Positions 15,801 to 47,948 of a stretch of DNA of 64,000 bases are shown here, one piece after another. Location: assembly GCA_951406725.2 (NCBI GenBank), contig OX597830.1, positions 5,518,001-5,582,000 of the forward strand, read 5' to 3'. A model generated the notes under the pieces. It made no database searches. It was not told the origin of the DNA and saw only the letters and a program-made list of their open reading frames with translations. The translations under genes and the position numbers were made by a program. The DNA is from Octopus vulgaris. Taxonomy: Eukaryota. The number at the start of each line of letters is the position of its first letter. The first letter of the stretch is position 1.

Positions 15801-15906
15801 ATACAATACTTCTACAGCTACTACTAGCATAGACTAAAATTGTTTTCAGAAAGAATGGCACCATCAAAAGTGGCAGTATATTAAAATACCTTTTATTGGT
15901 GAAAAT

Positions 15907-16230
15907 TATAAAAAATTTATAAACAAGGGAAGAAGAAAAAAGATTTCTATGCCAATATGCAGAGAATAGACATTAAATCGCCAATCACCACATTACAATA
16001 TACATTCACTATAAATACACGTCGTGCTGAAATCGAGGAGAGCAGGCTAACAGAATTTTTTTTAAAGAAATAACGAATCTAAAAAAAATTCTGTTAGCTT
16101 GCCTTCCTCGATTTCAGCACGACGTGTATTTATAGTGAATGTATATTGTAATGTGGTGATTGGCGATTTAAAGCCTATTCTCAGCATATTGGCATAGAAA
16201 TATTTTTTCTTTTGCCCTTGTTTATAAATT

Positions 16231-16237
<7 letters not shown>
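15907..16237. repeat. Long inverted repeat (arms ~158 bp, spacer ~15 bp)
   Basis: 15907-16064 is the reverse complement of 16080-16237 with few mismatches (e.g. CACGTCGTGCTGAAATCGAGG / CCTCGATTTCAGCACGACGTG). Confidence 0.95.
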
Positions 16238-16288
<51 letters not shown>

Positions 16289-16293
<5 letters not shown>

Positions 16294-17204
16294 TTAGCAA
16301 CGATTTGCCTCACCACACAGCGAATTTAGAAATAGCAGTCAAAGAGTTATGTTATTCTTTCTACTAAAAGGGAGATCTCAGTAAAACCACAGCACTTGAA
16401 AGGCAAACACAGACAGGCAAGAGAGAAAGAAATTACGGCAATCTATCATACAATTTTAAGTCACCTACGGACGTACGTTTCGAAATTAAGTTTTAGGAAA
16501 GCATAAGAATTAGATAATTATGTCTTACCCAACTTCTTTTCTCATCAGCGTAGGACACTACAATTATGAATAATTGTATATTAAATTTCGAGGTACTAGA
16601 AGGCATCATCTCAACTCAGTATCAGAGCGAGCTAAAGCCGTTACCAGTATCACCAAATTCAAAGTGTGAATGAAAGTTTGTGTCACCAACCCCTTCCCAC
16701 CAGCGTGTAGCCAAGACAAGATGTTGTGGTCATTTACTGCGATGAAATATGGTTATCAGTAATAATATAGGGTGAAATTAATTAATTTGGAATAATCATT
16801 AATTTCACCAAGTAGATTTCGGCATGTAAAAGCCTCATTTGAGGAAAGCTTAAGTAATTAAGGGTTTAGCAACGATTTGCCTCACCACACACCGAATTTA
16901 GAAATAGCAGTCAAAGAGTTATACTTATTCTTTCTACTAAAAGGAGATCTCAGTAAAACCACAGCACTTGAAAGGCAAACACCAAGTGCTATGGTTTTAC
17001 TGAGATCTCCCTTTTAGTAGAAAGAATAACTATAACTCTTTGACTGCTATTTCTAAATTCGGTGTGTGGTGAGGCAAATCGTTGCTAAACCCTTAATTAC
17101 TTAGTATTACTTAAACTTTCCTCAGATGAGGCTTTTACATGCCGAAATCTACTTGGTGAAATTAATGATTATTCCAAATTAATTAATTTCACCCTATATT
17201 ATTA

Positions 17205-17210
<6 letters not shown>
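16289..17210 (-). mobile_element. Non-coding Penelope-like/retrozyme-like element: 572-bp period partial tandem plus inverted terminal copy, inserted in (TA)n
   Basis: Direct repeat 16289-16410 = 16861-16982 (period 572); inverted repeat 16754-16970 vs 16983-17210; hammerhead at 16464-16554; (TA)n on both flanks; no ORF of 60 aa or more in the track. Confidence 0.85.
16464..16554 (-). ncRNA. Type I hammerhead ribozyme
   Basis: Minus strand reads CCTACG-CTGATGA-GAAA-(~52 nt)-TTTC-GAAA-CGTACG-TC-CGTAGG. Perfect 6-bp stem I, intact CUGAUGA/GAAA core, 4-bp stem II base, palindromic stem III (ACGTACGT) and GUC cleavage triplet. Confidence 0.85.
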
Positions 17211-17260
<50 letters not shown>

Positions 17261-17263
<3 letters not shown>

Positions 17264-17459
17264 AATAATAAAAGGGTAAAACTAATTAATTATTAATTAA
17301 TTTTAGCAAGTAGTGTTCAGTATGTAAAAAGACCATTTACGGTATATTTGAAACATTACGTTATAAAAATAGGGTTTAGTAAAATAATTTACTTTACCAC
17401 ACACCGATCTTTTTAGAAATAGCAGCCAAAAATCTTAGCTATTTCTTCTACTGATTTTT

Positions 17460-17462
<3 letters not shown>
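17261..17462 (-). mobile_element. Diverged relative of the terminal segment of the 16289-17210 element
   Basis: Collinear with 16757-16940 (AGGGT.AAA.TAATTAATT, CAAGTAG, ATGTAAAA, AGGGTTTAG, ACCACACACCGA, TTTAGAAATAGCAG.CAAA, TTCTACT); flanked by (TA)n. Confidence 0.7.
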
Positions 17463-45067: not shown

Positions 45068-45072
45068 TAATA

Positions 45073-47948
45073 CTCACTCAAACCCATCCAAACAGGAGTA
45101 CCACCACCCAAACAAACCCTGTGGATAAATAACATCCAAAACAAAATACAAAAAATGAGAAAAGATCTGTCGATTCTTAATGAAATCAGCAAACAATCAA
45201 CGCTACTGAACAACAAAAAGAAAACAAAAATACTCCGCAAATATAACATCACAGAGAAAGATTTACCTGAGATAAAAGAAAAGCTGAAGCAAGATATCCT
45301 TGCCAAAGCACAAAGGATCCGCCGGTACGAGAAACGCCAGCGCTTCTTCGAACAAAACAAAAAGTTCAACTCCAACCCCAAAAAGTTCTACCAACAACTT
45401 GGCAAAAATAAAATAGAAGTCACTGCAGCACCAACGGCAGAAGAATTGGAAGAATTCTGGAGAGAAATATGGTCGGCGAACGAACAACCCCAAAAAAGGA
45501 GAATCAAAATAACAAACTCGGCATCTGAACAACTTTGGACCCCCATAACAACTGAAGAGGTCACCCAGGCACTGCAATGACTAAGCAACTGGAAGGCATC
45601 TGGGCATGACAAGATCCCCAACTCCTGGTTGAAATATCTAACAGGAATGCACAACAAGCTGGCTGAAAACTTTAACAACATACTAGCAGAGCCAGAGACA
45701 ATGCCTGAATGGCTCACGAAAGGGAAAACCATCTTAATTCCCAAATCAAATGAGACAGCAAAACCAGAAAACTACAGACCAATAACCCACCTCCCTACAA
45801 TGTTCAAGGCATTTACTGCAGTGATATCGCAAAGGCTGAACAAGCACCTGGACGAAAACAAACTGTTCCCAGGAGAGCAGAAAGGATGCCGCAAAGGCTC
45901 ATATGGCTGTAAAGATCAACTAATGATTAATAAAGCCATAACTGAAGACAGCCACAGAAAGAAGAAAGGCCTCAGTATGGCCTGGATTGACTACAAAGAG
46001 GCGTTTGATAGCATCCCCCACTCATGGATCCTCGAAACATTAGCCATTAACAAAGTAGCACCAACAATCATGAAATTGATAGAGCACTCTATGAATAAAT
46101 GGCAAACAGTCCTACACCTCCAAACAAAAGAGGGACTCATGAAAACCAAAGACATCCCCATTAGAAGAGGAATATTCCAGGGAGACACGCTCTCTCCACT
46201 CCTTTTCTGCTTGGCACTGTCACCTCTATCTGATATACTAAATAGAACTGGATGCGGATATAAATGTTACGGCAAAACGATGAGCCACCTTTTATATATG
46301 GGTGACCTAAAACTATACGCTGCAAATGACAAACAGCTGGAAACACTATTAAAGACAGTTCATGGATTTACCAAAGAAATAGATATGAAATTTGGATTAG
46401 AAAAATGCGCCAAAGTAACCCTGAAAAGAGGAAAACTAGTTAAGAGTAGTAAAATCACACTAGATAAAACCAATGAAATAAAAGAATTAGACCAAAGCCA
46501 AACTTACAAATACTTAGGAATCCATGAACTAGATAAGACACAACACACACAAATGAAAGAGAAAATAAAAAAAGAATATTATAGACGAGTTAGATCAATA
46601 CTAAAAACAGAGCTCAATGCTAAAAACAAGATAATAGGTATTAACACTTTAGCTGTCCCAGTTATAAGTTACAGCTACAATATCCTTAACTGGACATGAA
46701 ATAAACTGACCAAAATAGATAGGAAAACAAGAAAAATAATGACAGGATCTAGGATGCATCACCCAAAATCTGACATAGAAAGACTATATATACAACGTAT
46801 AGAAGGTGGTAGAGGCCTTACACAACTGGAAAACTACTATAAAATAACCACCATAGGACTGCAAAAATATCTACTTCAGAAGGAAGGAAAACTGATACAA
46901 ATAGCAGCAAAACACGAGCCAAACAAAAAACTCTTCTAGTATTTAAGGAAGCTGAAAAAATACAAACAAGAAATCATACCACCTAATAAATATGAAGAAG
47001 AAGAAGATGAAGAAACAACAAAAACTATAAAACAAATGAAATCCAAACTAAAAATAGAACAGCAACGAACCATGTTAAAACGATGGCACGAAAAGCCCCT
47101 TCATGTTAAATACTGGACTAAACTAAACGCAAAAGAAATAGACAAAGAAAAATCCCAGCAATGGTTGAGAAACTCAGGACTCAAAGCCGAAACAAAGGGA
47201 TTTCTAATTGCAGCACAAGACCAAAGCCTCTCCACCAGAAATTACCAAAAACATGTAATGAAAAGAAATATAACAAGCAACTGCAGAATATGTGGAGATG
47301 GACAAGAAACAATAAATCATATTATCTCTAGCTGCCCAGTCCTGGCTAAGAAGGAATATATTCACAGACATGACAGAGTTGGAACCTACATACATTGGAA
47401 GCTATGCCAACATTATGGAATAACAACAGAAAAAAGATGGTATAGGCACACTCCAGAAAATGTCACAGAAAACGAGAAAGCAATCATACTCTGGCATATG
47501 CCGATACACACAGATAGAGAAATTAAGGCCAACAGACCAGATATAGTTGTCAGAGATCATGAAGAAAAAAAATGCTTTCTAATTGATGTATCAATACCGG
47601 CAGATAACAACGTGTCTCTAAAAGAAATGGAGAAACTATCAAAATACAAAGACCTGGAAATAGAGGTAACCAGAATGTGGAATCTGAAAACAGAAACAAT
47701 TCCTATCATAGTAGGTGCATTAGGCATGATAAAAAAATATTCAGACAAATACATAACAAAAACACCAGGACTTACAAACACATATAACATACAGAAAATT
47801 GCACTACTAGGCACTGCACACATCCTACGCAGAACACTTTCCATACAATAACCATTAGAGCATCACAACAAATCACAGCACATACCCAAGGCACACAGAG
47901 CTGTGCTCGGTAGTGAAATGAAGACACGCTATAAAAAATATACTACTG
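45073..47948 (+). mobile_element. 5'-truncated R4/Dong-like (RLE clade) non-LTR retrotransposon, ~2.9 kb
   Basis: Single reading frame with RT, CCHC knuckle and RLE, a short 3' UTR, and (TAA)n on both sides. Confidence 0.95.
45155..47851 (+). pseudogene. Disrupted reverse transcriptase-endonuclease ORF of the R4/Dong-like element
   Basis: RT motifs NYRPIT, EQKG, WIDYKEAFDSIPH, GIFQGDTLSP, YMGD (for YMDD, 46295-46306) and YKYLG; knuckle CRICGDGQETINHIISSC; RHD; RPDIVV..LIDVSIP..KLSKYKDL. The four ORF-track pieces share one frame, broken by stops at 45578, 46697 and 46937. Confidence 0.93.

Follow-up and report, generated by a model that had tools for sequence, protein, structure and literature searches.

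A dispersed non-coding 583-bp hammerhead repeat of Octopus vulgaris, likely written into (TA)n by a borrowed Penelope-type enzyme

Animal non-LTR retrozymes are non-coding tandem units of low GC content that carry one type I hammerhead each, range from monomers to multimers and co-occur with Penelope-like elements (PLEs), according to the available portions of PMC7229834 and of the preprint by Li, Clavereau and Pollet (10.64898/2026.07.22.740005). That 2026 preprint argues that animal retrozymes derive from PLEs; their mobilization by PLE enzymes has been proposed from co-occurrence and the phylogeny of pseudo-LTRs (pLTRs). PLE insertions themselves feature 5' truncation, partial tandems, inverted copies and a 30-40-bp tail (accessible text of Craig et al. 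2021, PMC8557442). The purified Anolis PLE protein cleaves AT-rich DNA on both strands, and its reverse transcription begins internally, at two sites that delimit the tail (accessible text of Frangieh et al. 2024, PMC11167929).

The locus described here occupies positions 16289-17210 of the window, which is the whole 64,000-nt stretch of Octopus vulgaris DNA that was analysed. Its best explanation, which we consider likely, is a two-armed insertion of a dispersed non-coding 583-bp hammerhead repeat, probably written into (TA)n by a borrowed Penelope-type reverse transcriptase (RT)/GIY-YIG enzyme. The 583-bp family is in all likelihood an animal non-LTR retrozyme or, equivalently, a non-autonomous Penelope-like element. 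It has an intact-core type I hammerhead in each unit, two or more hammerheads at some loci, no coding function and a GC content below 50%, as expected of a retrozyme, and it has no LTR/PBS/PPT organization, judged from its variable 5' and two fixed 3' ends. As expected of a non-autonomous PLE, it exhibits 5' truncation, partial tandem and inverted copies and two alternative 3' ends. The fixed, matching terminal inverted repeats of a fold-back element or MITE and the joined RT and GIY-YIG ORF of an autonomous PLE are both absent.

All the retrozyme features listed above recur in this family, including the co-occurrence with PLEs. Its unit of 583 bp falls within the 51-972 bp range of retrozymes in the available part of the Li et al. 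preprint, and is larger than the 150-450 bp units in that of Cervera and de la Pena 2020 (PMC7229834). Unlike the animal retrozymes covered in the accessible portions of these sources, it possesses a very long stem II and has no matching pLTR donor that we could find; it consists mostly of dispersed, 5'-truncated, two-armed (TA)n insertions of 1-2 units with two fixed ends. With PLE insertions (available text of PMC8557442 and PMC11167929) it shares 5' truncation, partial tandems, an inverted truncated copy, an optional tail at one end, AT-rich or (TA)n targets and a hammerhead near the 3' end, whereas it has no ORF, its tail measures ~103 nt versus the 30-40 nt published there, and the whole unit spans 583 bp. 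Hydra-clade PLEs (available text of PMC8557442) likewise insert into (TA)n and carry canonical hammerheads; unlike them the unit is non-coding, with no significant end similarity to the four Hydra-type groups examined. The Chlamys non-autonomous elements such as MRC1 are comparable as non-autonomous PLEs with pLTRs and head-to-tail multicopy insertions, but the same portions of PMC8557442 describe them as generally sharing 3' ends with autonomous families and as belonging to a group without canonical hammerheads.

In the literature on cephalopod retrozymes and on non-autonomous hammerhead Hydra/Penelope-like elements we found no description of the 583-bp family. The class is already known and the gain is incremental: the two-end tail footprint and the pairing of two different ends in one insertion (the A+B rule below) provide genomic evidence for the PLE route and a model for the formation of PLE inversions, and the conserved junction fold, which is predicted, gives the existing in vitro PLE assay a defined RNA target that can be mutated.

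Architecture of the insertion

The insertion comprises two arms of unequal length between two (TA)n runs, and both arms point outwards when it is read on the hammerhead strand. Its features are:

16234..16288, no strand: left half of the (TA)n target (sequence)
16289..16982, minus strand: left arm, 5'-truncated at unit position 450 and ending at 572, 11 nt before the usual end A (segments 2-572 and 450-582 of locus L001)
16464..16554, minus strand: type I hammerhead motif, predicted cut between 16470 and 16469 (motif and covariation)
16756..16858, minus strand: tail segment (unit positions 2-104), read through within the left arm (unit alignment)
16851..16861, minus strand: tandem junction from which 10 bp between short direct repeats have been lost locally, accounting for most of the difference between 572 and 583
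16971..16982, minus strand: 12 nt unique to the left arm (unit 450-461), an unequal truncation and not a loop
16983..17104, plus strand: right arm body, 5'-truncated at unit 462 and reaching end A at 17104 (unit alignment)
17105..17208, plus strand: right arm tail of about 104 nt, terminating at end B
17016..17153, plus strand: predicted junction-spanning fold (folding)
17208..17260, no strand: right half of the (TA)n target (sequence)

From its start the left arm crosses the head-tail junction and continues through one nearly full unit before it stops; the right arm runs past end A and stops at end B near 17208. A direct repeat with a period of 572 (16289 vs 16861, 97% identity over 122 nt) had led the preliminary description to a 572-bp unit. 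The period is present locally, but the family unit is 583 bp and 572 is a local deletion variant: the 10 bp that the window copy lacks at its tandem junction are retained in its right arm. The ~220-bp inverted repeat described there also exists, its arms (16754-16970 and 16983-17210) aligning at 91% over 468 columns that include the 12-nt middle and a 10-nt gap. What had been called a 12-nt spacer is, by contrast, unit 450-461, left by unequal 5' truncation of head-to-head arms. The sequence TATTACTGATA, taken for a 3' terminus joined to the next unit at 16754/16753, is really the distal second 3' end (end B), and 16754/16753 lies inside the unit. The (TA)n reported on both sides is there, at 16234-16289 and 17208-17260, and so is the reported absence of an ORF, the longest stop-free stretch in six frames being 56 codons. 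Target-site duplications are unreadable within (TA)n. The three overlapping segments of the window copy have diverged from one another by 2-3.4%, indicating an older, decayed insertion with one hammerhead that is not among the youngest.

The window holds other insertions as well. At 15804-16234 there is a two-armed insertion between (TA)n runs, with 158-nt inverted arms of sequence unrelated to the 583-bp unit and a left arm ~100 nt longer, which would fit the A/B rule. At 17262-17460 lies a single-armed, 5'-truncated, tailed copy of a sister family with its own hammerhead; this family has a 564-bp period, ~66% identity to the 583-bp unit and 2766 candidates. A fragmented LINE with RVT_1 (E 8e-29) and zf-RVT matches occupies 45071-47850 on the plus strand.

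The hammerhead motif and its genomic family

The preliminary description had placed on the minus strand a type I hammerhead with a perfect stem I and a GUC triplet, and the sequence at 16554-16464 agrees with it: a 6-bp stem I, CUGAUGA, a long stem II, GAAA and the GUC triplet form an intact core, and stem III has 2 bp closed by a palindromic GUAC loop. It is the sole site in the whole window, on both strands, that passes a scan for core plus stem I. An Rfam search of the whole window at gathering thresholds returned 0 matches, and the hammerhead call therefore rests on motif and covariation. Across 13 hammerheads of the 583-bp and sister families, 91% of the cells are paired and 28 changes affect both sides with the core kept; none of 500 shuffles reached an equally high value, although these counts take the sequences as independent of relatedness. 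Without constraints, the minimum free energy computed for the 111-nt hammerhead region falls short of significance (z -1.5), and that fold lacks stem III. The hammerhead is real as a motif and constitutes a predicted ribozyme, which seems to be under selection because families at 65-90% identity preserve its core and stems through compensatory changes. A weak, palindromic stem III characterizes the hammerhead type that works as dimers and cleaves poorly as a monomer (PMC4209133); for Xenopus retrozyme dimers, cleavage in vitro of 1 out of 9 is given in the available part of the Li et al. preprint.

With a natural copy as reference, the family unit of 583 bp has end B at 104, the hammerhead core at 312 and the predicted cut after 390, and contains 209 G+C (36%). 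The host genome measures 2.8 Gb and is rich in microsatellites. A search of it with the unit yielded 115 matches among the best 40 scored of 2559 candidates, and within that set about 40 near-full-length copies at 96-100% identity lie on 19 contigs. The exact hammerhead 20-mer occurs 795 times in the genome, in the 583-bp family and close sisters, and the shared end motif 6231 times, with 0 occurrences of either reversed control. Stand-alone monomers, partial tandems and arrays of up to about 5 units are found genome-wide; in the best 30 loci the 3' ends are fixed and lie on (TA)n, the 5' ends vary, and partial tandems and inversions occur. Several loci hold more than one hammerhead (two at L002, about three units at L186, about five in a 594-bp sister), compared with one in the window copy. 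The stand-alone monomers and tandems, the two-ended tail, the 5' truncation, the inversions and the (TA)n targeting together lend support to the initial proposal of a large retrozyme-like monomer copied by a Penelope-type enzyme.

In favour of a MITE (fold-back DNA transposon) or of a satellite expanded locally, either of which would make the hammerhead incidental, are the long inverted repeat and the TA flanks. We regard such an origin as extremely improbable: many copies are single-armed, inner ends vary, the two outer ends differ (A vs B) and there are no fixed terminal inverted repeats; the family is scattered over 19 contigs or more; and the hammerhead covaries.

Two loci call for separate mention. 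At L188 (G000:C11:47595000-47601500), two identical 1.5-unit copies with a common upstream LINE flank lie 2.7 kb apart and represent a local duplication or an assembly artefact. A LINE linked to the hammerhead boundary in L025/L026 was ruled out, as this is a duplicated copy inside an unrelated LINE fragment.

Two 3' ends and the partner enzyme

Both the best 30 loci and a position-ordered sample have 3' ends that sit on (TA)n at two fixed points ~103 nt apart, and 5' ends that vary. End A is the commoner and lies ~103 nt before the distal end B, with 62 A and 27 B ends counted over 78 position-ordered loci of the 583-bp and sister families. Ten of the 11 two-armed insertions pair one A end with one B end (p ~0.001 under independence). 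Before these counts, 7 duplicate or overlapping locus ids were dropped from the segment alignment and 8 from the end-count sample, as were segments below 92-94% identity or shorter than 35-50 nt. Two fixed ends are the Penelope "tail" signature. The coding PLEs of the same genome likewise end at two points on (TA)n, with offsets of ~39 and 32-35 nt in Neptune-type and of ~120, 155 and 67 nt in Hydra-type families. As for the 5' ends, those of 6 of 67 arms fall at unit positions 460-468 (about 16965-16983 in the window), immediately before a predicted hairpin, where the RT may stop.

The unit could in principle be the pLTR, or the 3' end, of a long coding PLE yet to be discovered, with the short copies as its truncation products. 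pLTRs do bear hammerheads and adopt the same tandem and inverted forms (available text of PMC8557442), and non-coding relatives of the ends of one Hydra-type family occur in this genome. Families were missed too, as the protein searches scored the best 76-150 of thousands of candidates, so that a rare parent could have escaped them. At many loci, however, the tail passes directly into the 583-bp body, which leads back to end A, with periods of 564-594. The preliminary description had proposed a genome-wide search for tandem arrays and for links to RT ORFs, and had named a terminal repeat of a longer coding element as the finding that would undo its reading; the search revealed arrays of up to ~5 units and, among 166 loci belonging to the unit or to sister families (some overlapping), 0 whose upstream side continues into PLE coding sequence with no intervening (TA)n. 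A PLE protein match lies nearby at 20 of the 166. A pattern of tail plus ATGG produced 80 matches, and none of the 15 examined was coding or joined to PLE coding, these loci being non-coding sister units, bare tails or unrelated flanks. The pLTR reading is accordingly quite improbable and, for the bulk of the copies, largely refuted.

Searches for the enzyme led to two kinds of PLE. A GIY-YIG family search retrieved Neptune-type families, which showed no similarity to the unit ends in 50 loci, nor in 20 more; matches to the unit at Neptune-type loci turned out to be separate neighbouring insertions behind a (TA)n run and were discarded. Three Hydra-type searches and one seeded on an old copy retrieved four groups, all with other ends, the marginal exception being one 51-nt match with E 0.046. 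Hydra-type families, identified by the motifs in the available portions of Craig et al. (PMC8557442), are abundant here, and their ORFs feature RWK/RWR, DKT, CxCx5C, CxxC and CxH motifs and long tails.

By analogy in tail length, hammerhead style and target, we propose that the partner may well be a Hydra-clade enzyme. A Neptune-type PLE, or one of another clade, is an unlikely though not negligible partner. Insertion into (TA)n with two ends is also seen in two young Neptune-type families, which have many intact ORFs of 775-781 aa; their end offsets of ~32-39 nt and their short or degenerate hammerheads nevertheless fit the unit poorly, in comparison with the Hydra-type offsets of ~67, 120 and 155 nt and with the long-stem-II canonical cores, like that of the unit, in 2 of 3 Hydra-type families. 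The sequence of the unit's ends is common to neither clade.

Several of the PLEs encountered are of note in themselves. Loci L321-L333 (e.g. G000:C1:57207500-57224500 and C11:13691000-13707000) belong to a Hydra-type PLE that is very young; its frame of 717 codons is intact, its period is 2590 bp and it forms tandem and inverted arrays. It is a good candidate for the in vitro PLE assay. Loci L241-L251 are Hydra-type PLEs with unusually long frames of about 980-1091 codons that include an Asn-rich insert, 1.1-1.7-kb 3' UTRs and no domain in Pfam. A young Neptune-type PLE (L081-L093) has a 479-codon frame without Pfam match upstream of its 781-codon RT/GIY-YIG frame, and a degenerate hammerhead core. 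A non-coding hammerhead insertion at L210:880-1360 and L038:1-120 resembles a second Hydra-type family (L261-L290) in ribozyme and end; the two are likely a parent-derivative pair for another retrozyme.

Junction fold and template

Folded as a circle, the unit reaches -147 kcal/mol (z = -5.0 vs 40 shuffles), with -119 for its antisense; the antisense strands of some sister units fold well too (z to -6.0, 6 shuffles). In the window, the predicted helices pair 17058-17066 with 17138-17146 and 17016-17020 with 17149-17153, and end A lies in the loop between. These 9-bp and 5-bp helices, which link the region before end A with the tail, are kept in 8 full-length sister units of 65-90% identity, as are hairpins beside both ends. 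The long junction helix is 96.9% paired over 16 junction sequences, yet it varies on one side only (G-U), with no double compensatory change, so that support for the fold is moderate. A helix strand with ACC-CU at its end precedes each of ends A and B by ~10 nt. On this modelling, the multi-helix fold across the head-tail junction is a candidate enzyme-docking site.

We propose that tandem copies are transcribed on the hammerhead strand and that paired hammerheads would cut the multimers into 583-nt monomers, whose ends would be held by stem I and could be ligated into circles. The enzyme would dock on the conserved multi-helix fold spanning the junction and cut both (TA)n strands, and reverse transcription would be primed internally, at end A from one DNA end and at end B, ~103 nt further, from the other. 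Each cDNA would run round the unit, often beyond the cleavage site, and stop variably, after which the two cDNAs would be joined head-to-head. A bolder version, which we put forward tentatively and think rather doubtful, is that units of 560-600 nt form a long-lived, parentless lineage of RNA circles that diverged into many families but retained the hammerhead and the junction fold; this fold would dock a Hydra-clade enzyme and set both priming sites ~10 nt past the ACC-CU helix strand, so that a single RNA would be copied from either DNA end, at two points of similar structure.

The arms themselves bear on the nature of the template. Divergence is 1.15% within an arm (88/7659), 1.19% between opposite arms (97/8138) and 2.9% between loci. 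Segments have 66% of their non-majority alleles in common within an arm (174/262) and 64% between arms (178/276), versus 8.6% between loci (2620/30616), which suggests one template per insertion. The window's three overlapping segments carry one allele found in 4 of 84 segments, and several alleles are confined to two segments of one insertion (count 2). The predicted cut site is crossed by 46 of 67 arms, a number inflated by the choice of many loci as best full-length matches, and no arm of the 67 starts within 10 nt of it (~2.4 expected by chance), implying that a cut linear monomer is not the main template. Because the arms share rare alleles and often cross the cleavage site, a circle or an uncleaved multimer probably served as template, and between these two the odds are roughly even; the shared alleles are explained equally well by a circle, by a homogeneous tandem source and by conversion between the inverted arms. 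The rare alleles show no A>G excess as a footprint of RNA editing (A>G 25, T>C 39).

With the same element and enzyme class, an uncleaved linear read-through of a tandem source might serve as the template, leaving the hammerhead unused for mobilization and the circle unneeded. Insertion by the Anolis PLE is unaffected by hammerhead mutants and unprocessed RNA is its main substrate (available text of PMC11167929), arrays of 3-5 units exist as possible sources, the 2-bp stem III is of the weak type with poor monomer cleavage (PMC4209133), and a homogeneous source would also yield shared alleles. Less easily reconciled with such a template are the compensatory changes that keep core and stems across families 65-90% identical, the alleles exclusive to two segments of a single insertion (count 2), and the layout of a monomer cut at 390, which would retain the junction fold inside and have its ends paired by stem I. 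We give the linear template a sizeable chance, short of even.

Assembled contigs, from runs guessed to be RNA and from runs of unknown kind, cover the unit, although contigs cannot show strand, ends or circles. Those from the unknown-kind runs contain a 583-nt "goes back" joint, and the same joint exists as a genomic tandem; the unit or close relatives of it also occur in contigs whose runs are labelled as four organisms.
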